From Candidatus Omnitrophota bacterium (GTDB lineage: Bacteria > Omnitrophota > Gorgyraeia > Gygaellales > Profunditerraquicolaceae), in assembly GCA_003598025.1 (NCBI GenBank), contig QZKH01000003.1:170048-234047 (forward strand): DNA of 64,000 bases. The letters are read 5' to 3'. The notes under the pieces are model-generated. The model saw nothing but the letters and a program-made list of their open reading frames with translations, was not told the origin of the DNA and ran no database searches. Within the stretch, counting starts at the first letter, position 1. Every line of letters starts with the position of its first letter. This document shows positions 15,343-33,288 of this stretch, piece after piece. Position numbers and translations under genes: made by a program.

Positions 15343-15520
15343 TTGCACCCTATTTACTTAGCCCTTATCCGCGAGGCGTTACATTTTGATATAGGCAGGT
15401 CTTCTGACTACGGGTTTAACCTATTGGCTGCGCCTTCCCGGTATTACCAGTGGCATCTGCAGCTGTTTTACCCTTTACAGCGGCGGGACCGTGGCCGATT
15501 TTCACGGCCTTCCCTTTACC
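15343..15520 (-). promoter_or_regulatory. Cobalamin (AdoCbl) riboswitch aptamer
   Basis: Minus-sense RNA contains ...aauagguaaagggaaggccgugaaaaucggccacggucccgccgcuguaaagggu...gcagaugccacugguaauaccgggaaggcgcagcc...gucagaagaccugccua. It includes the B12-box GCCACUG, the GGGAAGGC core and the 3' GUCAGaAGACCUGCC element characteristic of RF00174. Confidence 0.8.
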
Positions 15521-15547
15521 TATTCAAAATTCCAAATTGTTACTTCT

Positions 15548-20539: not shown

Positions 20540-21392
20540 CTTTCCAGAAGTACCTGAACATATACCACTGCTCGGGGTATTTTCGAATAAATTTCTCGAA
20601 TAATGATTTATAAATATTGATTATATTTTTTATATCAACTGCGTTATCGCCGGTTGCGGCATACTCAATTGGTTTCTCGATAGTTAAGGTAAAACTGTCA
20701 TTGGGGTTCCTAACCATAAAACCGGGTATTATTACTGCCCCGGTACGCAGGGAAAGCGCAGCCGGACCTTCGGGTAGGCAAGCCTGTTTATTAAAAAACT
20801 CTACAGGTATGCCTTTTCCTGTAAAATCCCTGTCTCCGACAAGAGCAAGCAGGTTATTGCCCCTTAAGGCATTAAGCGATTGCCTGACTGCTTTTTTAAG
20901 AGGGATAACCCTCATCCCTTTGCTCTCGCGCTGGAAATTAAAAAAATCATTTACTCTTTTATGCTTATGCTCAAGCGCGACCGCATACAAAGGATAGCCC
21001 ATAAGCGCAGTAACTACCCCGCCTAATTCCCAGTTCCCTAAATGCGCCGTCAGGACTATTGCCCCCTTTTTTCTCTTAATTGCCTCGTCAAAATTTTCAA
21101 TATTGATTATTTTTATGTTTTTTTCTATATATTGGCGGTTGAGTTTCGGAAAGCGGAAAAAATCAACAAGGTATTTTGCAAAGTTCCTGAACATTTCTCT
21201 GCGTATCACGGAAATTTCCCTGTCAGTTTTATCCGGAAAGATCACCTTCAAATTCCTGGTGACATTTTTTCTGTCTATATTAGCAAAGATATAATGCACA
21301 TCCGAGACAAATACTGCAAACTTATAAGCGACTTTTAAAGGCAGAAACAGGGCGATGAATTGACCGATGCGGTAAAATATATAATTAAACAT
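20523..21392 (-). CDS. LpxL/HtrB-family lipid A (lysophospholipid) acyltransferase
   Basis: 289 aa; LTAHLGNWELGG (H-x4-E/D) acyltransferase motif and overall Lip_A_acyltrans pattern. Confidence 0.7.
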   Translation of the reverse strand: MFNYIFYRIGQFIALFLPLKVAYKFAVFVSDVHYIFANIDRKNVTRNLKVIFPDKTDREISVIRREMFRNFAKYLVDFFRFPKLNRQYIEKNIKIINIENFDEAIKRKKGAIVLTAHLGNWELGGVVTALMGYPLYAVALEHKHKRVNDFFNFQRESKGMRVIPLKKAVRQSLNALRGNNLLALVGDRDFTGKGIPVEFFNKQACLPEGPAALSLRTGAVIIPGFMVRNPNDSFTLTIEKPIEYAATGDNAVDIKNIINIYKSLFEKFIRKYPEQWYMFRYFWKDEDRL

Positions 21393-22509
21393 TACAAAGG
21401 CTTAATATGTGTCTTGCGATATTCATGCTCGACTCAGGTTTAGATATCTTTTTAGCTGCGTTTGCAAGTTCCTTAAGTTTTTCAGGCGATGCAATCAGCT
21501 CTTCGACTGCAAGGTTTATTCTGTTTGCTTTATCAATCTTAATAGCTGCTTTATGTTCGGTTAAATAAGCTGTGTTGGAAGCCTCTTGCCCGGGGATGGG
21601 ATGAACGATTATCATCGGAATATGCTTGGATAAGGCTTCAGCAGTTGTTATGCCCCCGGGTTTTGTTATTAATACATCTGCAATACTCATCAGTTCGTTT
21701 ATATTGTTTGCGTACCCGAATAAAACGACTTTTTTACGGTATTTGTTAAGTTTTTTCTTTATTGTCCGGTAGAGCTTCTTGTTAGTCCCTGTTACGATAA
21801 TTTCCTGTATATCTTGATTTACATGTTCAAGAGATGATATTATGCTTTTAACAGGTCCGAGGCCCTGGCCTCCGCCCATAATAAGGGCAGTAAATTTATT
21901 GCTCTTAAGCCCGAGTTTGCTAAATACCTGGTCTTTGTTTACAGGCCGGTTGAAATCAGGGTCAAAAGGTATTCCAAAGGGCTTTATTTTTGAATGCGGG
22001 ACTCCTTTTTGCATAAGGCGTATGGATACCTCTTCGGAAGGCGTTATATAGGTGTTGACGTCGTCATAAACCCAATAAGCATGAGGTATATAATCTGTAA
22101 GTACGGCTATAAGAGGTATTGAAGAATGCGTTACCTTTTTATAGTCTGCTACCATGCCGCATGGAAAAGCCTGGGAGCAGACAACCGCATCCGGTTTGAA
22201 GCTGTTAAAAAGCTTTTCCAGCTTAGGCGAATTGAACTTATGTATCGACTCTTTTATCCTGGATATGCTTTTTGCAATCTTTTGGTTGTCGTATAAATAA
22301 CTCCAGATTGCCGGGGTCCTCTTTATTATCGCCATATAAAGGCGGTTAACTACCTTTTCTGATATGGGATTGGTGTAGTTAAAAGCGTTTATATTCAATA
22401 TTTCAGTTTCCGGCTCAAGCCGTTTTATAGACTTTTCTATAGCCTCTGTCGCGCAGCGGTGCCCTGACACCTCGGAGATATACATCAAGATGATTCTTTT
22501 TGCCGGCAT
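21385..22509 (-). CDS. MGDG-synthase/UgtP-like GT28 glycosyltransferase (diacylglycerol glycosyltransferase)
   Basis: 374 aa; N-terminal MGDG_synth-like region and a C-terminal GT28 C-domain (GGGQGLGP...). Confidence 0.65.
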   Translation of the reverse strand: MPAKRIILMYISEVSGHRCATEAIEKSIKRLEPETEILNINAFNYTNPISEKVVNRLYMAIIKRTPAIWSYLYDNQKIAKSISRIKESIHKFNSPKLEKLFNSFKPDAVVCSQAFPCGMVADYKKVTHSSIPLIAVLTDYIPHAYWVYDDVNTYITPSEEVSIRLMQKGVPHSKIKPFGIPFDPDFNRPVNKDQVFSKLGLKSNKFTALIMGGGQGLGPVKSIISSLEHVNQDIQEIIVTGTNKKLYRTIKKKLNKYRKKVVLFGYANNINELMSIADVLITKPGGITTAEALSKHIPMIIVHPIPGQEASNTAYLTEHKAAIKIDKANRINLAVEELIASPEKLKELANAAKKISKPESSMNIARHILSLCNV

Positions 22510-22511
22510 TA

Positions 22512-23678
22512 TCAGATTTTTCCTTCCTTATAAAGCTCGGTAAATACAGCGGATATTTGGGGGTGAAATTGCTTGCCTGCCAAGGTCTCAATCTCTTTTA
22601 CTGCCTCTTCGTTAGTCAGGCCTTCGTGATACGGCCTGTTTGTGGTCATGGCATCAAAAGAATCTGCCACGGAAATAATTGCAGCTATCAAAGGAATTTC
22701 TTCTCCTTTTAATCCCTCGGGATATCCGGTACCGTCATAGCGTTCATGATGGTATTTGACTCCCAAAATAGCATCTTCAAGCTCTCTTATCGGGATGAGG
22801 ATGTTAACACCGACAACAGGATGCGATTTAATGACTTTTCTTTCGTCATCATCCAGAGGACCCTTTTTATTTAAAATAGATTCCGGGATGCCTATTTTAC
22901 CGATGTCATGCAAGAGGCTTGCAATATGCAGATTTTCAATAAATTTATCATCAATTCTGAAATAGCTTTTTTCCATAAGCTTGCGTGCAATCTCAAGGCA
23001 AATACTGCTGACGCGCTCAGTGTGCCCGTGGGTGTAGTGGTCTTTAGCGTCGATTGCTGCGGCAAGCGCAATAGTCGTATGTATAAACAGCCGTTTTTCT
23101 CTCTGCAGCTGAAGCTCTAATTCTTTAAAAAGCTGGGCATTCCTGATAGCCATGGCAACATCTGAAGCCAAAGCGCTAAAAAAACTTAGCTCATCGCGGG
23201 AGAACTCTTTACCGTCTTTTTTATGGCCAAGCAGCAGGATGCCGAGCAGTTCATCCCTGTAGTAGCTCGGGATACAGGCAACAGCTTCAAATATCTCCAT
23301 CTGATATAAGGCGCTGTTTAAAAGCTCTTTGCTCGTAAAATCAAGCTCATTGCCCAGGACAGCATCTTTCGCTTCGCTATAAACTAATGAGCCGTTATTG
23401 AATATTTTTTTGTCTTCCCTGTTTATAAAAAATTTGATCAACGGATTATCGGAATCAAGGCGGGCAAAGCCTTCCGGTATTTTTATTCCGGCAGGGCCGC
23501 GGGAAACGGTTAAAACATAGCTGTCTTTATCTTTAACATGCAGCAAGATCCCCGCATGGCTGACGCTTACTTTTTGGACAAGCATGCGGATGATCAGCTT
23601 GAGAAGAAGCTCAGGCTCATGCACAAGGATCATATTCCTTGCTGCTTCTTCCAATTCTCTCTTATAATCTAAAGCCAT
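22512..23678 (-). CDS. GAF-domain HD-GYP phosphodiesterase (c-di-GMP)
   Basis: 388 aa; HD (HDIGKIGIP) and HHERYDGTGYP motifs after a GAF-like N-terminal domain. Confidence 0.8.
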   Translation of the reverse strand: MALDYKRELEEAARNMILVHEPELLLKLIIRMLVQKVSVSHAGILLHVKDKDSYVLTVSRGPAGIKIPEGFARLDSDNPLIKFFINREDKKIFNNGSLVYSEAKDAVLGNELDFTSKELLNSALYQMEIFEAVACIPSYYRDELLGILLLGHKKDGKEFSRDELSFFSALASDVAMAIRNAQLFKELELQLQREKRLFIHTTIALAAAIDAKDHYTHGHTERVSSICLEIARKLMEKSYFRIDDKFIENLHIASLLHDIGKIGIPESILNKKGPLDDDERKVIKSHPVVGVNILIPIRELEDAILGVKYHHERYDGTGYPEGLKGEEIPLIAAIISVADSFDAMTTNRPYHEGLTNEEAVKEIETLAGKQFHPQISAVFTELYKEGKI

Positions 23679-23693
23679 TTTTATGGGGGTGAC

Positions 23694-24056
23694 TTAGGAT
23701 AATTCTTTTAAAACAACTTTTTCCAATTCTTCCAGCCTTAGGGGCTTATGGATATAATCAGTTGCGCCAAATTCCTTACATTTATTGAATGATTCTTCTT
23801 CGTCAGGCTTTTTGCCGGTTACCATGATTACTTTAGTGGAAGGATTGATTTTTTTTATTTGCTTGAGCGTTTCTATGCCGTCAATGCCTTCCATTTTAAT
23901 ATCGAGCAGGATCAGCTGGGGCGGCGCTTCAGAGACGATTTTTAAAGCCTCTTCACCGCTTGCTGCAATCCCGACGTCAATTTTTCTTTTCTTAAAAAAA
24001 TTGGCGGCAAATTCCCTTACGTCCAATTCATCATCTACTATTAAAAGCCTTGGCAT
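23694..24056 (-). CDS. Single-domain response regulator (CheY-like receiver)
   Basis: 120 aa; LIVDDE...D(55)...K pattern. Confidence 0.8.
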   Translation of the reverse strand: MPRLLIVDDELDVREFAANFFKKRKIDVGIAASGEEALKIVSEAPPQLILLDIKMEGIDGIETLKQIKKINPSTKVIMVTGKKPDEEESFNKCKEFGATDYIHKPLRLEELEKVVLKELS

Positions 24057-24172: not shown

Positions 24173-26359
24173 TTACTCTGCTGTTGCAATTGGTAACTCA
24201 AGTATGAAACGCGTTCCGACCTTATAAGAAGATTCAAAAGCAATCCTGCCTTTATGAGTGTCGGTTATAATCTTTTTGATAACATACAAGCCAAGCCCTG
24301 TGCCTTTGCGCGATGAAGTTTTTGTAGTAAAAAACGGGGTAAATACCTTCTTAATGTTGTCTTCTTTTACCCCCATGCCGTTATCCTCGATGATCATTTC
24401 AAGGAAATCATCCTTAGGCTTAGCGCTTATAGTCAGTCTTCCCCTATAGTTTGGCTCATTCAGGGCAGCTTTGCGTTCGTTCGTGGCATCATAAGCATTA
24501 TCGATGAAGTTAAAAAATGCTTCCTGAAGCTGTACAAGATTACCTTTTATTTTAGGAGTATCTTTACTGTAGTTACGGATAATGTCAATTTCTGAAAGCT
24601 TGATTTTAAACTGTATCATATCAAGCGTAGCATCTAAAATCTGGTCAATGGTCAGCTCACCAAAATTATCTTCTCCCTTACGGGTATATTTAAGCATGCC
24701 TTTTACAACTTCGCCTCCCTGCATGACGTTGGCCTGGATCCTTTCAAGGGCATGTCCTACGCTTTTTATCATCTCCCGGACTTCCGGTGTGCAGTTAGCC
24801 GTATCTGTTAACTTTATAGTATCAATCGTATCCCCGGCAATAAGGGATAAAGCATAAAACCTGTTGTTTATTTGATGAGAAAGCCCGTCTGCCATGGTTC
24901 CGATTGTCGCCATTTTCTCAGCCTGGGCAACCTGTTCCTGCATCTCTTTTGTTTCCTCGTAGAATTGGGCGTTCTCAATAGCCAAAGCAGCCTGGCTAGC
25001 CAATACCTGGAAAACATTTAAGTCATCATGAGTGTATATTTCGCCGGACATCTTATCTCCAAGCACGACAAAACCGATAAATTTATCCTCAAGGAAGCTG
25101 GGAATGATTACAGTGGCTGTTAAAAGGCGCATATTTTCTTCCAGATGCGCATAGGTAATATCGTTTGTATCAAGCATCTTGCGTTTGATTTCGTCGTATA
25201 TTAATGGCTGCCTCCTGAAAACTATCCAGTTGACGAGCGGATTATCGGAACTTAATTTTGGAATGGGGATGCGGCCCTTATCTCTGCTTACCTGTAGCAT
25301 GTATTCATCGCTTTCCTGGTTATAAAGATAAATGGCGGCGTAAGAGATTTTTACGGTTTTAGTTACTATGTGCGTTATCAGGTCAAGGAGCTTTCTTAAG
25401 TTTCGGATACGGGTCATGCCAACCGAAGCCTGCTTTAATACATCCTGGTATCTTTTCTGCTCTCTTAAAAGCCTTGCTTCGGCTTTTCTTTCCAAATAAA
25501 TGTAGATAAACGGCCCGACTGTTGCCAAGCCTGCCATTAAACCTAATGGCGCAATCCACCAGCGCGTACCTAAATTTGTTATCAGCCATGTCCTGAACCA
25601 GACTACAAGCGCAAAAGGTAAACCAAGGACTATTGTATAAACAGCGATAAATGTTCCGGTCCTGCTGATAGCAACCCGGATATCCATTAGACGGTATTTG
25701 AGAATTGCATATGAGATAATAAGAGGGAAAGTTGTAAATAGTATTAATGGATAAGGTGGGAAATTTATATTAAAAGAAAGCAAAAAAGTGCTACCTCCTC
25801 CAGTAAATCCCATAACTGAGGCCAAAAATATATATTTTATTTGATTTGCTTTAAAAGCGGTTGTTTTTTTATATTCCCTCGATAGTAAATTTAATCCGTA
25901 AAGAACAATAAGAGAAAAATAGATAGCAAATAAATAATATCCAATGCCAGGCACTATGTAGTATTGGAATATTGATTTTGACGTTAAATCTTTTATATAT
26001 AGTGGAGTAAAGTTTAGTAAGAAAATTATCGAACTGAGTATTAAGACAATATTAAAAATAAGTTTAATTCTGCTGAGTTTTTGTAACTCAAGAAATACAA
26101 TTATAAAGCGTAACCATAAAAATGCAACAAGCATGCCAGAGATTTCAACAAACTTAAGAATTATAAAGCTCGCTTGCTTATTATCAGAATTTATGGCTAA
26201 AAAATAAAAAACACTCCAAAACGAAGCATTGATACATAGCATTGCCCAGGCATTATTGACAACACTTTTACGGTTTCTTAAATAAACCAGAATACCAATG
26301 CCAAAAACAGTAAAGAATCCTAATAAAGTTATTGTGTTAAAATAAAGTTTTGCTATCAA
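24173..26359 (-). CDS. Sensor histidine kinase with N-terminal 7TM sensor region, GAF domain, HisKA and HATPase domains
   Basis: 728 aa; about 7 N-terminal transmembrane helices, GAF-like middle domain, H-box DGLSHQINN, N/G boxes (DNGMGV..., GTGLGL). Confidence 0.8.
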   Translation of the reverse strand: MIAKLYFNTITLLGFFTVFGIGILVYLRNRKSVVNNAWAMLCINASFWSVFYFLAINSDNKQASFIILKFVEISGMLVAFLWLRFIIVFLELQKLSRIKLIFNIVLILSSIIFLLNFTPLYIKDLTSKSIFQYYIVPGIGYYLFAIYFSLIVLYGLNLLSREYKKTTAFKANQIKYIFLASVMGFTGGGSTFLLSFNINFPPYPLILFTTFPLIISYAILKYRLMDIRVAISRTGTFIAVYTIVLGLPFALVVWFRTWLITNLGTRWWIAPLGLMAGLATVGPFIYIYLERKAEARLLREQKRYQDVLKQASVGMTRIRNLRKLLDLITHIVTKTVKISYAAIYLYNQESDEYMLQVSRDKGRIPIPKLSSDNPLVNWIVFRRQPLIYDEIKRKMLDTNDITYAHLEENMRLLTATVIIPSFLEDKFIGFVVLGDKMSGEIYTHDDLNVFQVLASQAALAIENAQFYEETKEMQEQVAQAEKMATIGTMADGLSHQINNRFYALSLIAGDTIDTIKLTDTANCTPEVREMIKSVGHALERIQANVMQGGEVVKGMLKYTRKGEDNFGELTIDQILDATLDMIQFKIKLSEIDIIRNYSKDTPKIKGNLVQLQEAFFNFIDNAYDATNERKAALNEPNYRGRLTISAKPKDDFLEMIIEDNGMGVKEDNIKKVFTPFFTTKTSSRKGTGLGLYVIKKIITDTHKGRIAFESSYKVGTRFILELPIATAE

Positions 26360-27027
26360 TTACTATTTCTCCTACAAAATTGAAGAAAAGGTATAATCAT
26401 TGGTACGGTCTTTTTGTAGTGCAAATACTCATCACCAAACTTGATAAAAGACAATTTTTCCTCATAAATAGCTCTAATTATATACAATGGCGTATTAATA
26501 AATATAATTATAAAAAGCGCGTAAAATGCATTGGCAATCAACGATATGCCTATTAACTCAAAAATAATTCCTAAATAAATCGGATGCCTTATAAAACTAT
26601 AGGGACCAGTTTTAACACAAGAGTATTTTATTTCAGATTCATCTTCATTTACTAAATGTATCTTCCAATGTTCCCCTAAACTTTTGACAGACCAATATCT
26701 GATTACCCCTGCTAAAATAAATACTGAGATTCCGAACATACTAACCGCGAAATACTTAATACCGTTAGTGACAAAAAACTCAGCTATTACAACTAAACAT
26801 GTAACTAAGTACATAATTGAAGTAACTACCATTGTCCAGTCACCTTTGTACTTATATTTGTTTGTTTCCTTAGTTGTAAAAAAAGTTTCCCATACTCTCT
26901 CAAACATAATCAATACTGCAAAAATACTAAAAATTATTCCTCCTCTTGCCTCAGGGTAGAATATATTTAAAACTATTAATAGTACTGGAATTAATAAAAG
27001 AGAAAAAGCAATGAAAATAATAATCAT
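26356..27027 (-). CDS. ICMT/PEMT-superfamily membrane methyltransferase
   Basis: 223 aa; polytopic membrane protein with C-terminal ...GPYSFIRHPIYLG...E motif of isoprenylcysteine carboxyl methyltransferase-family enzymes. Very AT-rich gene; its stop overlaps the histidine kinase start by 4 nt. Confidence 0.6.
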   Translation of the reverse strand: MIIIFIAFSLLLIPVLLIVLNIFYPEARGGIIFSIFAVLIMFERVWETFFTTKETNKYKYKGDWTMVVTSIMYLVTCLVVIAEFFVTNGIKYFAVSMFGISVFILAGVIRYWSVKSLGEHWKIHLVNEDESEIKYSCVKTGPYSFIRHPIYLGIIFELIGISLIANAFYALFIIIFINTPLYIIRAIYEEKLSFIKFGDEYLHYKKTVPMIIPFLQFCRRNSN

Positions 27028-27797
27028 AAGTCTTCCAAATATTTAGGCGATCCAATAATCTTTAAAGTATCACGATAATATCTTGTATATAATGGTTTTT
27101 TTGATATTTTTAAGTTTTTTAACAATTTTGATAGTTCTTGGTCACCAAGCTTGAATTCAACAGCTTTTGAATCGCCAAAAACTCCAAAAGTTTCCAATTT
27201 TATTTTTGATACCTTCATATCTTTAAGAGAATATGTTGTGTGGTACTCATATTTAACTTTTTCTTTTAATGGTTTTTTTATTTTGAACTTTAATATCCAC
27301 TCATTGTTAGAGTAAGCATCTACTTCAATAAATTTGTCAGTTTTAGCAAAATTTGCCACCGTTAACTGTTTATAATGAGGATAACCTGTAATTATATTGC
27401 CATGCTCAATTGCCAAATCAGTACTTTGGGCTACCGAAATAGGGATGAATCCGAATTTTTTTGTCACATATTTTATGGGAAAGGATATAAAAGGAATGTT
27501 AAACTTAGTTGCATGGCCAACAATGAGCGAAAAAGTCAATTCAGTAAAGCGGCCGACCGGTGTATCATAAAAATTCAATATTGTAATACACATTAGGCTT
27601 CGTCCGGGTAATAGTACAAGTGGTTTTAGCTTTTTTGTACCAATAATTTCAGCAGCTGTTTTTGATGATATTGTAAATAAGGCATTGATAGCTTCGCACT
27701 TATATTTAATAGGGATATCAATTAGTAAATCTCTAACTTTTACTTTTTTTTCAACATTTATCTTGAACGAATCCAGATCTACTTTTAAATTTTTCAC
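27024..27797 (-). CDS. Hypothetical Lys-rich protein (possibly acetoacetate-decarboxylase-like fold; weak)
   Basis: 257 aa, no transmembrane segment, very AT-rich; 4-nt overlaps with both neighbours. The family call is tentative and from memory only. Confidence 0.3.
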   Translation of the reverse strand: MKNLKVDLDSFKINVEKKVKVRDLLIDIPIKYKCEAINALFTISSKTAAEIIGTKKLKPLVLLPGRSLMCITILNFYDTPVGRFTELTFSLIVGHATKFNIPFISFPIKYVTKKFGFIPISVAQSTDLAIEHGNIITGYPHYKQLTVANFAKTDKFIEVDAYSNNEWILKFKIKKPLKEKVKYEYHTTYSLKDMKVSKIKLETFGVFGDSKAVEFKLGDQELSKLLKNLKISKKPLYTRYYRDTLKIIGSPKYLEDL

Positions 27798-27799
27798 CT

Positions 27800-29023
27800 T
27801 CAGTCTCCTTTTAAATTGTTTTTTAACTTAATCATTAGATCAATCAAACAATCTATCTGTTCTTTTGTATGTGTTGCTTTGACTGTGAGCCTTAATCTGG
27901 CTTTTCCCCAGGGTACTGCTGGCCAGCGCACGCATGGTGCCAAAATTCCGTTTTCAAGTAACTTTTTAGAAAACTCTATTGCTTTTTCTTCTTTTCCTAT
28001 TAAAACCGGGATGATTTGGGTTTCGCTGTTAAGCGTATCAAACCCTGATTTTGTCAGATTAGTTTTAAGATAGCTGACATTTGACCATAGGTTTTCTCTA
28101 AGAGAATGATTATTTTTTGCTTCTTTTACAGCTGCAATCAGGGCAGCAGCGATTGAAGGTGGTATTGGCGCAGAAAAAATATAGGAACGCGCGCTTATTC
28201 TTAAATAATCAATCAGGGCTTTTGTGCCGCAAACAAATCCGCCTACACCGCCAAACGATTTAGTGAAAGTCCCCATTGTGATATCAATATCGTTTTCATC
28301 AAGCCCAAAATGCTCGGCAGTTCCCCTGCCGTTTTTACCCAAAACTCCGGATGCGTGCGCATCATCTACCATAACAATTGAATTATATTTTTTCGCAAGC
28401 TCAACAATTCCCGGCAACGGAGCGATGTCACCGTCCATGCTGAATACACCGTCAGTAACGATCATTTTCCGTATTTTTTTTAATTTCTTAAGTTTTCCTT
28501 CGAGGTCCTTCATGTCCTTATGTTTATATACAACGATTTGGGCATGGCTTAGCCTGCAGCCGTCAATTATACTTGCGTGGTTTAATTCATCGCTTAAGAT
28601 TATTCTTTTCCCCTGGAAAGGAGCTGGTATCAGCCTGCCTGCTATCTTATGAAGGCCGCTTACAGCATCCATTACTGCAGGAATTGTTCCGGTATTTGCC
28701 ATATAACCGGTAGAAAAAGTTATTGCGGATTTGCTATTCTTAAAATCTGCTATTGCCTTTTCAAGCTCTACCTGGATATCGGTATTCCCGGAAACAAGCC
28801 GCGAACCACCGGAGCCAACTCCGTATTTGTCAATTGCTTCCTTTGCTGCCTTTTTTAGAAGCTCGCTATTGGCCAGGCCTAAATAATCATTTGAGCAGAA
28901 AATCAGCACTTTTTTACCGTTAGCGACAACTTCTAATGATGTTGGTGAGCCGGATATTAAACTGATATCAGGGTAAAGCCCAAAATCACGGATATTTTTA
29001 AGTATGTTTTCTATATTCTCCAT
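27800..29023 (-). CDS. PLP-dependent alpha-oxoamine synthase (BioF/KBL/serine-palmitoyltransferase/CqsA family)
   Basis: 407 aa; GGSRLVSGN, DDAHASGVLGKNGRG and the PLP-lysine motif TFTKSFGGVGGF. Confidence 0.8.
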   Translation of the reverse strand: MENIENILKNIRDFGLYPDISLISGSPTSLEVVANGKKVLIFCSNDYLGLANSELLKKAAKEAIDKYGVGSGGSRLVSGNTDIQVELEKAIADFKNSKSAITFSTGYMANTGTIPAVMDAVSGLHKIAGRLIPAPFQGKRIILSDELNHASIIDGCRLSHAQIVVYKHKDMKDLEGKLKKLKKIRKMIVTDGVFSMDGDIAPLPGIVELAKKYNSIVMVDDAHASGVLGKNGRGTAEHFGLDENDIDITMGTFTKSFGGVGGFVCGTKALIDYLRISARSYIFSAPIPPSIAAALIAAVKEAKNNHSLRENLWSNVSYLKTNLTKSGFDTLNSETQIIPVLIGKEEKAIEFSKKLLENGILAPCVRWPAVPWGKARLRLTVKATHTKEQIDCLIDLMIKLKNNLKGD

Positions 29024-29030
29024 TTATAAA

Positions 29031-30032
29031 TTATATTACCGGCGCTTCCGGCAGCCAGGTCTCAAAGCCGTATTTAGCAGCTATATTGGCTATTTCTTCA
29101 AGGTTGTCAGGGTTGATATTATCACCTAAAGAATAATTATTGAATCTTGATTCTTTTGCCAGCAAAAGCGTTTCGGCAAAAGGCGCGTTCACGACATTTC
29201 TAGGCAGGCATTTATTAATAAAAATATCTGCCTCGAAAGGCAGCTTAATCAATCCCGTCCTTATAATAGTGATGTCATTTCTTAATTTTTTGTTATTAAC
29301 CATGCAAAACGGCGCAGAGGCATCAAAGATTATACAGCCGGGTTTTGGAATATCAAGATTAATGATTGTGCTTAATGGCGCGTTGCCGATAGCAACGATT
29401 ACATCAGACGCAGAGGTTAATTCGGAAAGGTTATCTTCTATATTTACGGTAAGCCCGCCATATTGGGAAGCAAGTTCTGTTTTCAGCCTGATGACAGATT
29501 CAATCTCGGTATCGTTAAGCGTTATGTCAGAAGTAAAATCAATTATTTTTTTTGTAAAAAGCTTACCTACTGCCGTACCTGCCCCGACTACAGAAAACTT
29601 CATTTTAGCAAGGTCAATCCCCCTGCTCTTGACAGTCCTGTAAACAGATTCAACAATCGACCATGCGAGCAAAGTATTGCCCGTTGTCATCGGCATGCGT
29701 ACTTTTTTTAACAAAGTAACTGCGCTGGTAGACTCGACAAGGTTGTATCTCTCCAGGCCGATCATTTCTATATCTAAGTTCTTAGAAATATCTTCATCGG
29801 AAAGGATAGAATTTAAAATCAAGGCTTCTCCCTGAAGGAGAAGGTCTTTAGGCGGTGTGGACGGGATAACCAGGTAGCTGAGGATATCCTGTGAACCAAA
29901 AATTATCCTTTTGGGCTTGAGAATTTTGTAAATCGGTGTCTTTTTTAATGCAGGGTTGAATAAATCCCAAAACCAGCCTTTTTTAAGGTATTTTATTGTC
30001 CGGGGATGGATAATAAACGCAAATGACCTCAT
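29031..30032 (-). CDS. Acyl-ACP reductase (AAR)-family NAD(P)-dependent reductase, paralog 1
   Basis: 333 aa. Aligns by eye along its whole length with cyanobacterial AAR: FIIHPRT vs GLIGHLTS; TTGNTLLAWSIV...SVVGAGTAVGK vs TTGNTHTAYVIC...AVVGATGDIGS; CIIFDASAP vs CVLIDGGYP; C-terminal APFAETLLLAKE...YSLG...AKYGFE vs ACFAEAMLLEFE...FSWG...VRHGFQ. Confidence 0.65.
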   Translation of the reverse strand: MRSFAFIIHPRTIKYLKKGWFWDLFNPALKKTPIYKILKPKRIIFGSQDILSYLVIPSTPPKDLLLQGEALILNSILSDEDISKNLDIEMIGLERYNLVESTSAVTLLKKVRMPMTTGNTLLAWSIVESVYRTVKSRGIDLAKMKFSVVGAGTAVGKLFTKKIIDFTSDITLNDTEIESVIRLKTELASQYGGLTVNIEDNLSELTSASDVIVAIGNAPLSTIINLDIPKPGCIIFDASAPFCMVNNKKLRNDITIIRTGLIKLPFEADIFINKCLPRNVVNAPFAETLLLAKESRFNNYSLGDNINPDNLEEIANIAAKYGFETWLPEAPVI

Positions 30033-30033
30033 T

Positions 30034-31122
30034 TCATCTCCAAAGCAATATCCTGCTTTTAGATTTTTTCTTTATGTTTGCCTTAATCCTGCTTATCTCA
30101 ATGTCAGATATCGGTTTCTCCTTGCTTGTGAGGCTGTCAATTTCAAATCCGTGTTTTGCCCCAAGCCTCAAAATTTCTTTGACCTTAAAAGCATCAAAAT
30201 CTTTTCCCAGGGAATAATCCTCGAATTTCTTCTCCAGCGCCAAAATCATCGGTTCGGCCATGCATGGATAACACAATCCTTCGGGAAGGCCAAAATCAAA
30301 ATTGAATTTTACGTCTCCGGGAGGCTTAACTGTTACTCCGTCAATAACCAGCACGTCGTTGCGAATGCTCGGAAGGATGCGCCGCGGGTAAGAAGCATCA
30401 AAGATAAGGCTGCCCGGCTCAACCTTGCTTATATCAAATTCTGCAGGTATGCGGTTAGTCGCAACAATTATAATTTTAGTTTTATTTAAAATGGAGTTTA
30501 TGTCAAATTTACTATGTATTTTTGCTCTTTTTTCTTTGGGGATGCCGGCTAGTGCAATATTTAATTTATCTACATTGTGCGCGCTGACATAAGTCCCGCG
30601 CACGAAATGGGAAAGTATATCAAGGCAGTACTTTCCGACGCTTGAAGTCCCTCCCAGGATCAGGATGTAAGTATCATCTAGGGGGATATCCATTAAATCA
30701 GCGCCTCTTAATATTGCTTCGGGTATAGTAGAAAGAGTATAATTGGAGCCGGTTGTCATCGGGCAAGGAATGATCTTTTTTAAATCCGCTCCTTTATTGC
30801 CGCTGAATGCCGCATAAGCAGTCAACCCTATCAATTTAGGCGAAATCGAACTTGCAAATTTAAGTGTGTTAATGACTGCCTTCATCACTTTTGTAGGGCT
30901 TAAGGAAACCATCTGTTCCATAAGCAGCGGGCACATTACGAGTGCGCCTTTTGCTGTCCTGCCTAAATCTGAATATAACCCTCTGATTTCGGAAGCCTTA
31001 AAAGGCTGCATCCATTCCAACACCTTTTTTACTAATGGCCGAGGTTTATTTTTCATCCCCGGCTCATATTTATATAACAGCTCTTCGTTAGTCGGATGGA
31101 TTATGAGGGTGTAGTCATACAT
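30034..31122 (-). CDS. AAR-family reductase, paralog 2 (start revised to the internal ATG at 31120-31122; the ORF-track start at 31236 adds a spurious W/R-rich 38 aa)
   Basis: From MYDYTLIIHPTNEEL... onward it parallels paralog 1 and AAR (TTGSNYTL...LILGGTSSVGK; LIFDASYP; PCMAEPMILALEKKFEDYSLGKD...AKHGFE). The revised start gives an 8-nt ATGTATGA overlap with the upstream SRPBCC stop. Confidence 0.6.
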   Translation of the reverse strand: MYDYTLIIHPTNEELLYKYEPGMKNKPRPLVKKVLEWMQPFKASEIRGLYSDLGRTAKGALVMCPLLMEQMVSLSPTKVMKAVINTLKFASSISPKLIGLTAYAAFSGNKGADLKKIIPCPMTTGSNYTLSTIPEAILRGADLMDIPLDDTYILILGGTSSVGKYCLDILSHFVRGTYVSAHNVDKLNIALAGIPKEKRAKIHSKFDINSILNKTKIIIVATNRIPAEFDISKVEPGSLIFDASYPRRILPSIRNDVLVIDGVTVKPPGDVKFNFDFGLPEGLCYPCMAEPMILALEKKFEDYSLGKDFDAFKVKEILRLGAKHGFEIDSLTSKEKPISDIEISRIKANIKKKSKSRILLWR

Positions 31123-31561
31123 TTGAGTTCTCCGCCTTATTCTTAATAGCCAGCACCATACCGGTGAGCCCCCGCTCAGCTTTTTTCTTAAGGACTGAAC
31201 CAACATACTCTTCCAGGATGGGTATTCCCCAGTCAAAATCAGCTTTTAAGGTCAGTTTGCTGCCGTCATGCCATTCCTTTACGTGCCAAATCCCCTGATA
31301 GCTTTGGTAGTAACCCTCGACCATATTAAATTTAATTATTCCTGCAGGTTCATCTATATTGTCTTCTTCCTTCCAGTTTACCGGAGCGCCTTCAATCTCA
31401 GTTTCCCATGAAGTAATAAATTTGGTATCGGATAGAGATTTAATGACCTTAAGGTTTTTAACGTCACGCATAAAAGAAGGGTATGATTCCATATCCCTAA
31501 GTATTTCAAATACTTTTTCTTTCGGTTTCTTTATTACGCAAGATGCTTCAATAGTTACCAT
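31115..31561 (-). CDS. SRPBCC-superfamily protein (polyketide cyclase/dehydrase / lipid-binding START-like)
   Basis: 148 aa; MVTIEASCVIKKPKEKVFEILRDMESYPSFMRDVK...W is the usual SRPBCC N-terminal pattern. Confidence 0.5.
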   Translation of the reverse strand: MVTIEASCVIKKPKEKVFEILRDMESYPSFMRDVKNLKVIKSLSDTKFITSWETEIEGAPVNWKEEDNIDEPAGIIKFNMVEGYYQSYQGIWHVKEWHDGSKLTLKADFDWGIPILEEYVGSVLKKKAERGLTGMVLAIKNKAENSNV

Positions 31562-31566
31562 ATTTT

Positions 31567-31812
31567 TTATATAAGACTTTTTTCTGCGCGTTCTTCCTCT
31601 GTTTTGCGCCTGTCTTTTTTTCCGCTTTCATGATATTCCAGTTTATCCTTAATCCACTTTTCTATGTACTTTTTGTGGAACCGCCAGTCAGCGCCGATTT
31701 TGAACGCCGGTATCCTGCCGTCTCGAGCATAACGATGCACAGTCAGTGGATGCAAGTTCAAATAATCTGCAACTTCTTTTGCTGTAAGGATTTCCTTATC
31801 TTTTTTTGCCAT
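31567..31812 (-). CDS. Excisionase/MerR-like helix-turn-helix DNA-binding protein
   Basis: 81 aa; LTAKEVADYLNLHPLTVHRYARDGRIPAFKIGADWRF matches the excisionase-family HTH consensus; basic C-terminal tail. Confidence 0.6.
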   Translation of the reverse strand: MAKKDKEILTAKEVADYLNLHPLTVHRYARDGRIPAFKIGADWRFHKKYIEKWIKDKLEYHESGKKDRRKTEEERAEKSLI

Positions 31813-31895: not shown

Positions 31896-32575
31896 GGACC
31901 GTTTCCTTCCAACCCTCTATCCCGCTAGGTGTTATAAAGGAAGTGTCCTGCTTTCTTTAGCCTTTATTCGGTGAATTTATCTAAGCAAATCAAGCCTTCT
32001 AAAGGATTTGTTTTACTATGATAGAAATGATAGCTGCTCCATAGATAATCATTGGGGCTAACAACGATCCCTGCCCTTACAGGATTATTATGGATGTATT
32101 CAATGCAGGAAAGTATATAATCGTAGCCAGTAATGACGTTACTTTTAAATCTGCCTTGCCAAACATGTCCCGTATAGCCGTATTTTTCACGGAATTTAAA
32201 GCTGTAGGAAAGTTCAATTGCATGCATTATTTTTGAAATGTTTATATTGCAAGAGGGCTCTATAATTAGATGCGGATGCGTGTCCATCAAAACAAGCGAA
32301 TATACCTTAAACCCAAATCTTTCTTTAAATTTGGATAACGTTTTTAGGAAAATTATTTTATCTTCATCTGTACGCAAAACATATTGACGGTTATTTCCCC
32401 TAATACAAATGTGGTATATTGCTGATGTAAAATATATGCGCTTATGTTGTGTCATATTGCCTCCTTCCACATTAGTAGACGAAGGAAACATGATATTCTA
32501 ACTGAATAAGAATGCTTTAGGGGGACACTTCCTTTGTAACACCTAGCGGGATAGAGGGTTGGAAGGAAACGGTCC
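31896..32575 (-). mobile_element. REPtron: RAYT gene flanked by 53-bp inverted REP sequences
   Basis: 31896-31948 (ggaccgtttccttccaaccctctatcccgctaggtgttataaaggaagtgtcc) and 32523-32575 are reverse complements with 1 mismatch and flank the Y1 transposase gene. Confidence 0.7.
31964..32491 (-). CDS. REP-associated tyrosine transposase (RAYT; IS200/IS605-like Y1 HUH transposase)
   Basis: 175 aa (true start possibly M13); HUH motif THPHLII, catalytic Tyr region WSSYHFY, N-terminal YHICIRGNNRQ. Matches the TnpA_REP pattern. Confidence 0.75.
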   Translation of the reverse strand: MFPSSTNVEGGNMTQHKRIYFTSAIYHICIRGNNRQYVLRTDEDKIIFLKTLSKFKERFGFKVYSLVLMDTHPHLIIEPSCNINISKIMHAIELSYSFKFREKYGYTGHVWQGRFKSNVITGYDYILSCIEYIHNNPVRAGIVVSPNDYLWSSYHFYHSKTNPLEGLICLDKFTE

Positions 32576-33288
32576 TATTTGAGGAGTTTAAGCAGGCAAA
32601 GCGGGTATTCGCCTTCTGTAGCATCGAAAGTTTCAGCTTTTTGACGGCTGCATTCAGCCCAATCTCCGCTTTCATCAATCATAAAGTAAGCATCTTTAAC
32701 TATTTTTAAGGGCTTGATAAGCTCTTCTACAAGTTTTGAATCATATATCCTGGCATATGGCCGTATAATCTTAGCTTTACCAAAAGGGATCGTTAATATA
32801 ATTGTGCCCTGGTTTTTTAGTATCCTGACCATTTCAGCCAGAGCCTTCTTATCAGCCTGCAGGTCTTCTTTCTCTCCGTGCCTTCCAGAAATACCGATAT
32901 GCTCAAGAGTAGAGATTGCCGTTATTGCATCAAAAAAATTGTCCTGGAAACTGGTTTTTATCACGCTTTCTTTAACAAAATTAAAATTCTTGAAACTTAT
33001 CTTATTTGTTATCGCATACTCCCTTATATCCAGTCCGTAAGTTTGATATCCAAAACCCGCCAGTAAAAGCGGGAAAAAGCTGCCGGCGCAGCCTACATCA
33101 AGAATTTTAGCAGGGGTCGAAGGAAGATTTTCAGTGGCAAAGCTGTATTCTATATACCTATCGGTAGGCCTTAAAGGCTGTTTGGCAAAATATTCAGGGA
33201 AGATTTTCTGTATTACTGCAATCCCGGACTTACTTATAACTTCATAAGCCTTTTCTTTTATTGTCTTTTTTTCTTTTGTTTTTGACAT
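32575..33288 (-). CDS. Class I SAM-dependent methyltransferase
   Basis: 237 aa; ILDVGCAGSFF (motif I) and downstream motifs. Its stop codon abuts the right REP. Confidence 0.65.
   Translation of the reverse strand: MSKTKEKKTIKEKAYEVISKSGIAVIQKIFPEYFAKQPLRPTDRYIEYSFATENLPSTPAKILDVGCAGSFFPLLLAGFGYQTYGLDIREYAITNKISFKNFNFVKESVIKTSFQDNFFDAITAISTLEHIGISGRHGEKEDLQADKKALAEMVRILKNQGTIILTIPFGKAKIIRPYARIYDSKLVEELIKPLKIVKDAYFMIDESGDWAECSRQKAETFDATEGEYPLCLLKLLK

Follow-up and report, generated by a model that had tools for sequence, protein, structure and literature searches.

An AAR-like enzyme candidate and its degenerate paralogue in a variable gene cassette of a Candidatus Omnitrophota genome

Two AAR-like genes and their superfamily

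In the present study, we analysed a 64,000-nucleotide stretch (the window) of a Candidatus Omnitrophota metagenome-assembled genome (MAG), with attention to two adjacent minus-strand genes whose products resemble the acyl-ACP reductase (AAR) of cyanobacteria. The upstream gene encodes P2 (30034..31122, 362 aa), an AAR/PigE-N-like protein which, judged from its residues, is a probable catalytic acyl-thioester reductase. The downstream gene encodes P1 (29031..30032, 333 aa), a degenerate AAR-fold paralogue and probable pseudoenzyme or adaptor. Two NCBI entries, C4533_03395 and C4533_03400, are identical to the P1 and P2 products, and the genes lie exactly where a preliminary description of this DNA had placed two adjacent minus-strand open reading frames (ORFs). 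Directly 5' of P2, on the same strand, lies the gene for a 148-aa SRPBCC/START-like small lipid-binding protein (31115..31561); it overlaps P2 by 8 nt, and elsewhere such a protein is fused to the AAR-like domain.

The longest P2 ORF begins with TTG at 31236 and would give 400 aa with a 122-nt overlap onto the upstream SRPBCC gene. The preliminary description had preferred the internal ATG at 31122, which gives a 362-aa protein starting MYDYTLIIHP, and this start is also that of the NCBI and JGI calls (P0038). It has GGAG 7 nt 5' and a ATGTATGA overlap with the SRPBCC gene, and among 20 P2 homologues Met1 is invariant and lengths are 361-363 aa, so that gene calls, homologue lengths, ribosome-binding site and overlap agree. 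P1 starts one base past the P2 stop, with GGAG 5 nt 5'.

P1 and P2 match each other by BLASTP with E=1e-21 and 26% identity across 260 residues. This similarity is far above chance, and on this comparison they are regarded as true paralogues, as had been proposed, that diverged anciently. Their sequence relatives in the PDB are limited to AAR (6JZQ/6JZU/6JZZ) and PigE (4PPM), to which P1 adds the carmabin TAD (putative terminal amidation domain; 9E4S/9E4X). The E-values for P1 and P2, respectively, are 2e-10 and 2e-5 against AAR (6jzu/6jzz) and 2e-6 and 4e-21 against PigE (4ppm). The NCBIfam PigE model (NF053554; N-terminal reductase region) matches with E=2e-22 (P1) and E=9e-37 (P2), and the AAR equivalog model TIGR04058 with E=1e-18 and 67.7 bits (P1) and E=1e-9 and 37.9 bits (P2), the cutoff being 449.7 bits. 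These profile matches are significant and bear out the earlier placement of both proteins in the AAR superfamily outside the cyanobacterial alkane context; by sequence, P1 and P2 are members of the thioester-reductase superfamily that includes AAR, PigE-N and TAD (COG5322-type fold). Because the scores fall far under the TIGR04058 cutoff, neither is an orthologue of the cyanobacterial alkane-pathway AAR, to which P1 and P2 are 21-25% identical. As had also been claimed, the aldehyde-deformylating oxygenase (ADO), the partner of AAR, was not found in the window: no tblastn match to an ADO query sequence had an E-value under 2.3.

Similarity to AAR along the whole length, a further claim of the preliminary description, holds in part. 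The HMM alignments to AAR are partial, spanning about residues 93-325 of P1 and 122-327 of P2, but the AlphaFold2 model of P1 (pLDDT 80, pTM 0.84) has the three-domain AAR fold and superposes on AAR as had been suggested. Its seven best PDB matches are all AAR, at full length (TM 0.74-0.76), followed by TAD (TM 0.68), and generic Rossmann enzymes match at TM 0.47 at most. We also considered a BioU-like role beside the neighbouring gene labelled BioF and rejected it, as no chain named BioU occurs among the sequence matches of P1 and P2 or the fold matches of P1. BioU structures are present in the PDB.

The statement that non-cyanobacterial members of the family are uncharacterised is outdated. 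PigE's N-terminal domain is a thioester reductase with experimental support, and its Cys is Cys296 (PMC8341465). KecF-type and transaminase fusions have been described (PMC6498172, PMC10829540). In addition, the TAD of a nonribosomal peptide synthetase (NRPS) has a solved AAR-like structure with a TTG-Cys active-site pair and N-terminal-domain dimerisation (10.1101/2024.10.28.620694).

Catalytic residues in P1, P2 and their clades

The acyl-enzyme intermediate of AAR is carried on Cys294, and a C294S mutant is unable to form it (PMC7089970). We aligned 229 relatives to an AAR sequence, the numbering of which was verified against C294 and the loop 162-GATGDIG-168 (PMC7089970). The P2 of the window has the Cys, in YPCMAEP, together with TTGSN, so that both members of the TTG and Cys active-site pair are present. 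Its loop reads GGTSSVG (G165 replaced by Ser), with His, Lys and Lys at 189, 193 and 314 and Tyr at 247. The P1 of the window carries Pro at the Cys294 column (APFAET), the loop GAGTAVG (G165 replaced by Thr), Thr, Ser and Asp at 189, 193 and 314 and Ala at 247, and its tail is WLPEAPVI; its TTGNT stands without the Cys. The placement of the Pro has high HMMER posteriors in the region, and two independent MAFFT alignments concur. Thus, the AAR loop is intact in neither protein and the 2'-phosphate pocket R189/R193/R314 is kept in neither, though the P2 pocket is partly basic. A motif of the TTG type is kept in both, as is, behind the position of the nucleophile, the dipeptide Ala-Glu (AAR Ala296-Glu297). 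The preliminary description had read TTGNT in both proteins, which is exact for P1, P2 having TTGSN, and a C-terminal HGF block in both, from which P1 departs by ending in YGF. The catalytic Cys, set beforehand as its refutation test, gave a divided answer, being kept in P2 and replaced by Pro in P1. Since Pro replaces the Cys that AAR, PigE and TAD all have, P1 cannot act as a thioester reductase of the AAR type.

The same division is found across the clades. In the 'standard' clade (Bacillota, Chloroflexota, Eremiobacterota and others; n=97), the Cys (YACMAET) and G165 (GATGSIG) are each present in 97/97 and Arg189 in 95/97. The P2 clade of Omnitrophota (n=62) keeps the Cys in 60/62 ([YF]PCMAEP), with G165 in 2/62 (Ser 42, Asn 16) and mostly His/Lys/Lys at 189/193/314. 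Its loop is usually G-[AV]-T-S-S-[VI]-G-[KR]; the main sub-clade keeps basic residues at 193 and 314, and in a deeper sub-clade the nucleotide loop is gone (GA-NPLVY, GV-NIFTE). In the P1 clade (n=61; 300-340 aa, tail EVWVPEAPVL) only 3/61 have the Cys, the column holding Ser in 34, Ala in 11, Pro in 7, Asp in 2, Trp in 1 and other residues in the rest. G165 is found there in 16/61 and His7 in 21/61, and Arg314 has become Asp or Glu in 49/61. A 'long' type (n=5; 520-550 aa) with an N-terminal SRPBCC fusion has the Cys (LYGCF[SA]E) and G165 (GGTGDIG) in 5/5, and its motifs are the nearest to those of cyanobacterial AAR. Among the matches listed in a GTDB scan with the P2 profile, most were relatives from Bacillota (32-40% identity) and not close ones from Omnitrophota; the Omnitrophota context was drawn from metagenomes scanned with the P1 profile and from looking up exact proteins.

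P1 is the fastest-evolving gene in the locus. Across four genomes, every pair of P2 proteins shows 66-68% identity and the remaining locus genes are 52-68% identical; P1 is 46-57% identical among the other three of those genomes, and the P1 of the window is 31-36% identical to any of them. Conservation of the N-terminal and middle (nucleotide-binding) domains is 42% and 40% in the P1 clade against 51% and 47% in the catalytic clades, and that of the C-terminal domain is 62% against 63%. A few members (P0004, P0005, P0023, P0026) retain the Cys and a GATGS[IT]G loop (GGGGSIG in P0026), and hence the clade descends from an active enzyme. The ORFs of the clade are intact and of stable length, the tail is conserved and the fold is predicted with confidence, from which we infer that P1 is functional yet non-catalytic. 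In the P1 clade, the catalytic residues are unconstrained while the fold, the length and other regions are conserved, which is the pattern of a pseudoenzyme. On these alignments, we read P1 as a pseudoenzyme and not as a second reductase. No description of an AAR-fold pseudoenzyme clade was found in the literature searched.

Two other relations of P1 were considered and rejected. One was complementary degeneracy, a heterodimer taking the Cys from P2 and the NADPH loop from P1; the P1 loop, too, is free of constraint (G165 in 16/61), and P1 is found as well with the 'long' SRPBCC-fused type, in which GGTGDIG and the Cys are intact. The other was kinship to the 304-aa partner protein (cl1) of the Bacillota clade, for which hmmsearch gave nothing and hhalign a probability of 2.5%. 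This conserved 304-aa protein, which has no Pfam, NCBIfam or PDB match, almost always precedes the canonical AAR-like gene (66 of genome loci L005-L083; e.g. L056 9063-9977), and the pair is a widespread uncharacterised two-gene module in Bacillota and other phyla.

The variable cassette and the adjoining sensor

The first gene of the locus, conserved in Omnitrophota, encodes an 81-aa HTH_17 (excisionase-family) DNA-binding protein (31567..31812). After the SRPBCC gene, P2 and P1 come an alpha-oxoamine synthase (AOS; BioF/Kbl/SPT family) of 407 aa (27800..29023), a 257-aa protein of the acetoacetate-decarboxylase-superfamily (ADC) fold (27024..27797) and a 223-aa ICMT/PEMT-like membrane methyltransferase (26356..27027). 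These are followed by a sensor module made of a 728-aa HisKA_7TM-GAF histidine kinase (24173..26359), which lies 3' of the cassette in the examined loci reaching far enough, a stand-alone receiver-domain response regulator of 120 aa (23694..24056) and, as its output, a 388-aa GAF-HD-GYP protein, a putative c-di-GMP phosphodiesterase (22512..23678). All are on the minus strand and overlap or lie within 15 nt of each other, save for a 116-nt gap ahead of the receiver gene. Operon structure is inferred from these overlaps and short gaps only; in a scan of 22-33 kb, promoter-like sites were fewer than in shuffled sequence and there was no informative terminator. Between lipB and the HTH_17 gene, the window also has genes for an IS200-like Y1 transposase (31964-32491) and for a methyltransferase of class I (32575-33288), where other Omnitrophota have a 79-aa lipoyl/biotinyl-domain protein (31964-33288 in the window).

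The gene at 27800-29023 is identified from its motifs and profiles as a fold-type I pyridoxal phosphate (PLP) alpha-oxoamine synthase. It scores about evenly across the BioF, KBL and SPT models (TIGR01825 449 bits, bioF 444, KBL 422, SPT 392), and alignment to ThAOS 8s1y shows the PLP Lys (TFTKSFG), NHAS and DDAH intact. Among solved structures, it matches best the AOS of Thermus, which has broad specificity, and the SPT of Sphingobacterium (3a2b, 1e-88). The NCBI label is BioF, yet biotin genes stand beside it in none of the window, L003, L093 and L131/132. Relative to Thermus AOS 8S1Y, residues ~119-136 form an insertion of ~17 residues (avsglhkiagrlipapfqg).

The predicted structure of the 257-aa protein has the ADC double-barrel fold. 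Its AlphaFold2 model has pLDDT 79.5, the top 22 PDB matches are all ADC, MppR, Sbi00515 or Swit_4259 (E to 2e-9), and Pfam ADC matches 5/8 members of its family. In a search for the Schiff-base Lys (Lys115 in Clostridium), hhalign against CaADC aligned only 58 N-terminal columns, with a probability of 0.25%; by eye, GYPHY of the family may align with AYPKK of ADC, in which case the Lys would be absent. The interval 26356-27797, holding this gene and the ICMT-like one, is a low-GC island (GC 0.29-0.30 and third-position GC 0.24-0.26, against GC 0.40-0.44 in the flanking genes), which suggests recent horizontal acquisition.

Over about 50 loci, the content of the cassette is highly variable and its position in Omnitrophota is conserved. 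On the 5' side stand aconitase, T2SSE, IDH, MDH, Lpd, LipB, the 79-aa lipoyl/biotinyl protein and HTH_17, and on the 3' side the HisKA_7TM kinase, the receiver protein and HD-GYP. The P1-type gene is usually the first after the HTH gene. The sets seen after it include a PlsC-type acyltransferase, SRPBCC-P2 or the SRPBCC-fused long type, B12-radical-SAM (DUF4070) proteins, a LuxD-like acyltransferase-methyltransferase fusion, KAS/FabG/FabZ with amine-oxidase-like flavoproteins, and extended-SDR reductases. Two cassette variants carry B12-binding radical-SAM DUF4070 proteins and another the LuxD-like fusion (L090 14334-15818; L093 13085-14554; L094 2442-4124). The order SRPBCC-P2-P1 is found again in L001/L124 and L094, and the order P1-SRPBCC-P2 in L093, L113 and L122. 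AOS is found in the window, L003, L093 and L131/132; P1 is missing from L003 and L131/132, and most P1 loci are without AOS. As AOS occurs apart from P1 in these loci, and about 12 P1 loci have no Cys-bearing paralogue within 10 kb, P1 is neither an obligate partner of P2 nor tied to AOS. P1, AOS, the ADC-fold protein and the ICMT-like methyltransferase are interchangeable parts of the cassette. Toxin-antitoxin and defence genes (AbiEii/AbiEi, Fic, MNT/HepT and ParE) lie repeatedly inside it (L001 10370-12247, L131 5792-6697, L090 13497-14330, L093 12795-13088), IS200 insertions are also among those collected by the locus, and the site resembles a hot spot for insertions.

In the examined loci that have an AAR-like gene, the recurring unit is SRPBCC, the AAR-like gene and a 7TM-GAF sensor with HD-GYP output, as seen in several Omnitrophota loci and one Shapirobacteria locus. 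SRPBCC and the AAR-like domain are fused in P0065, L014 and the 'long' type, and L014 and L073 have a 4-nt overlap between the AAR-like gene and that of the HisKA_7TM kinase. The Shapirobacteria locus, from the Candidate Phyla Radiation (CPR; L010 326-4072), has SRPBCC, an AAR-like gene with canonical Cys and GATGSIG, and then a 679-aa HisKA_7TM-GAF-HD-GYP protein, which is the kinase, receiver and HD-GYP pathway of the window in one polypeptide. The minimal SRPBCC-AAR-like-kinase modules (L010, L014, L073) have fully canonical Cys and Gly-loop signatures. The sole solved relative of the SRPBCC protein is the START-like TTHA0849. Fusions of 507-550 aa with SRPBCC N-terminal lie at L090 11885-13450, in L086, L089, L091 and L105, and at L014 6311-7834; the L086-L105 group is nearest to cyanobacterial AAR (GGTGDIG, GCF[SA]E), and L014 has standard-clade motifs (AYACMAET, GASGAIG). 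In Berkelbacteria, also of the CPR (L133 8001-11113, L134 1858-4970), the ADC-fold and ICMT-like pair stands directly 5' of a HisKA_7TM kinase, with neither AOS nor an AAR-like gene, and this three-gene unit crosses phyla. The Shapirobacteria and Berkelbacteria links favour some functional tie of the cassette to the sensor, the direction of which they do not show.

Proposed roles and the alternatives

Overall, we consider it probable, with moderate confidence, that P2 is a functional enzyme and P1 a non-catalytic paralogue, both in a hypervariable lipid-gene cassette tied to a sensor. What we observe is that both proteins belong to the superfamily, that the Cys is kept in P2 and lost in P1, that there is coupling to SRPBCC and that the cassette varies; the chemistry is inferred. 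By analogy with AAR and PigE, P2 would load its conserved Cys with an acyl chain taken from acyl-ACP or acyl-CoA and would probably use NAD(P)H to reduce the thioester so formed, giving a fatty aldehyde. This aldehyde may then be taken up by the SRPBCC/START-like protein, which is translationally coupled to P2, in the manner in which AAR hands it to its partner ADO via a tunnel (PMC7089970). P1, having lost the nucleophile and the NADPH 2'-phosphate pocket and kept the fold, would most likely be an acyl-chain or acyl-ACP binding adaptor or a partner subunit. It may partner a catalytic enzyme or an acyltransferase without catalysis of its own, for which the N-terminal-domain dimerisation of TAD is a precedent. 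AOS, the ADC-fold protein and the ICMT-like methyltransferase would be interchangeable add-ons. The cassette as a whole may serve membrane-lipid tailoring, or it may make a lipid-derived ligand for the 7TM-GAF sensor. Homologues of ether-lipid (ElbD) and membrane-spanning-lipid (Mss) genes are often present in Omnitrophota MAGs (PMC11868695).

Several observations weigh against this proposal. The main uncertainty is that NAD(P)H-dependent reduction by P2 is not assured, because G165 is replaced by Ser and deeper members of the clade have lost the loop. The GxGxxxG...D pattern of the P1 of the window could still bind NAD(H), and both clades are biochemically uncharacterised. About 12 P1 loci have no Cys-bearing AAR-like paralogue within 10 kb, P1 lying there beside KAS/FabG/FabZ, and for this reason an obligate P1-P2 complex is unlikely. 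The link between cassette and sensor could be conserved synteny and not shared function. Support for the SRPBCC-AAR-like-sensor unit from outside the phylum consists of one Shapirobacteria locus, the Berkelbacteria loci linking only the ADC-fold and ICMT-like genes to the kinase.

The preliminary description had proposed that both proteins are working acyl-thioester reductases, acting in sequence (acyl-ACP to aldehyde to alcohol) or on two chain lengths, around the PLP enzyme. The two are indeed AAR-superfamily proteins of full length, encoded in one operon behind good Shine-Dalgarno sites, and both retain the TTG-type motif and the Ala-Glu dipeptide. However, P1 has none of the Cys294, R189, R193, R314 and Y247 equivalents. 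In place of the Cys, its clade admits S, A, P, D, G, H and W, and in AAR a change to Ser at this position prevents formation of the acyl-enzyme (C294S; PMC7089970). The 2'-phosphate pocket residues of P1 are now T, S and D. In addition, AOS is not a constant neighbour. We regard the proposal as very improbable. Could P1 instead be a Cys-independent NAD(H) ketoreductase acting on the alpha-aminoketone made by AOS, the two forming a pathway to a sphingoid-base-like amino-alcohol? P1 lies directly 5' of AOS with a 7-nt gap, its GAGTAVG followed by Asp ~18 residues on resembles, as read from the letters, a Rossmann NAD(H) fingerprint, and SPT-type enzymes are among the best AOS matches (3a2b, 1e-88). 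The Gly loop, however, is not conserved in the P1 clade (INASGSLG, IRASDTVG, INRKESVLG), and the fold family is without a known ketoreductase. P1 is absent from the AOS loci L003 and L131/132, AOS is absent from most loci with P1, and the functional tie to the PLP condensing enzyme that had been suggested is likewise not supported. We regard this role as quite unlikely.

Another alternative is a P2 that is not a reductase and forms only the acyl-S-enzyme, as an acyl transferase, in TAD-like non-reductive chemistry or as a sensor of acyl-ACP status for the 7TM-GAF kinase. The middle loop Gly is gone in 60/62 members of the P2 clade, the whole loop is deleted in a sub-clade still holding the Cys, SRPBCC and the kinase (L004), and the TAD fold supports chemistry beyond simple reduction (10.1101/2024.10.28.620694). 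Set against this, the main sub-clade keeps a defined loop and basic residues at 193 and 314, arguing that a phosphate-containing ligand is still bound, and the minimal modules L010, L014 and L073 are fully canonical in Cys and Gly loop. We take a non-reducing P2 to be unlikely. The neighbourhood could also be a coincidence, with AOS a genuine BioF and AOS, the ADC-fold protein and the methyltransferase having landed in an insertion hot spot, sharing no pathway. AOS does score above the TIGR00858 bioF cutoff (443.6 against 426.45) and bears the NCBI name BioF; the ADC-fold and ICMT-like genes form the low-GC island (0.29-0.30 against 0.40-0.44), and the locus gathers toxin-antitoxin, Abi, Fic and IS200 insertions. 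On the other hand, the order SRPBCC-P2-(x)-AOS-ADC-like-(ICMT) is found in three separate Omnitrophota lineages (window, L003, L131/132), bioA, bioD and bioB are beside AOS in none of the window, L003, L093 and L131/132, and AOS scores about equally on the KBL, SPT and BioF models. To a chance neighbourhood we assign a low probability.

Returning to the proposal of one enzyme and one pseudoenzyme, a more far-reaching and rather improbable form of it would make SRPBCC and the AAR-like protein the ligand-making and ligand-presenting arm of a lipid-signalling module, so far undescribed, of ultra-small bacteria (Omnitrophota and some CPR). A fatty aldehyde, elaborated here by AOS, the ADC-fold protein and the ICMT-like methyltransferase, would be sensed by the 7TM-GAF kinase, and c-di-GMP would be set via the receiver and HD-GYP proteins. 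The cassette, including the dead P1, would diversify the signal between lineages like quorum-sensing dialects. The interest of the locus rises sharply if this signalling reading is true. Omnitrophota are an uncultured phylum with mostly ultra-small cells (PMC10066038).

Lipid-modifying synthases are paired with sensor kinases in CqsA/CqsS (an AOS-family synthase) and PhcB/PhcS (a methyltransferase). As in the window, an AOS-family enzyme or a carboxyl-type methyltransferase lies there directly 5' of a multi-pass membrane histidine kinase. These are functional analogies only: there is no orthology (CqsA model score 181 bits against a cutoff of 428), and the kinase here is HisKA_7TM-GAF with HD-GYP output.

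Among characterised proteins, AAR (S. elongatus orf1594; 6JZQ/6JZU; TIGR04058) shares the three-domain fold (in the P1 model), the TTG-type motif, Ala-Glu and, with P2, the Cys294 equivalent, and a small partner protein that would accept a hydrophobic product is likewise encoded next door. The partner here is SRPBCC and not ADO, the P2 loop is GGTSSVG against GATGDIG, and P1 lacks Cys294, R189, R193, R314 and Y247. The PigE N-terminal domain (prodigiosin; 4PPM) is the best-scoring characterised relative of P1 and P2; its Cys296 aligns with the P2 Cys, and there too a reductase is paired with a PLP enzyme. In PigE, however, the aldehyde is aminated by a fused class III aminotransferase, whereas P1 and P2 are stand-alone and the PLP neighbour is an inconstant AOS, which condenses with thioesters and not with aldehydes. 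The TAD of the NRPS CarI (9E4S/9E4U/9E4X) has an AAR-like fold (P1 match E=8e-5, TM 0.68) that can dimerise and do non-canonical chemistry. It has TTG and an invariant Cys, in contrast to the P1 clade, and is a C-terminal NRPS domain selective for NAD(H). The 'standard' clade (COG5322; Bacillota, Chloroflexota, Eremiobacterota) contains the closest stand-alone relatives outside Omnitrophota among the matches listed (30-40% identity) and has the FNFDFGLP and CMAE scan motifs in common with P2. It differs in having YACMAET and GATGSIG in 97/97 and in its partner, the 304-aa protein in a birA-coaX-dusB...greA-lysS block, in place of SRPBCC and the kinase.

Thus, the fold family and the Cys mechanism were already known from AAR, PigE and TAD. 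What is new is a clade of stand-alone Omnitrophota proteins in which the nucleotide loop is altered, a pseudoenzyme-like sister clade, and the presence of both with an SRPBCC carrier in a variable cassette beside a c-di-GMP-linked sensor. The reading of one enzyme and an AAR-fold pseudoenzyme clade corrects the attractive misreading of a duplicated reductase pair. The analysis also defines, within an aldehyde-forming family of importance to biotechnology, three stand-alone uncharacterised clades that are clearly marked by their sequence signatures. The recurrent genomic coupling to a START-like carrier and a 7TM-GAF/HD-GYP sensor may be an entry point into the lipid metabolism and signalling of Omnitrophota.

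Two further features lie downstream in the window. With a 2-nt gap 3' of the HD-GYP gene stands a gene for an MGDG-synthase-like glycosyltransferase of the glycolipid synthase family (21385-22509, minus strand), and a cobalamin riboswitch (Rfam RF00174, 97.3 bits, E=5e-23) is found at 15377-15538 on the minus strand.

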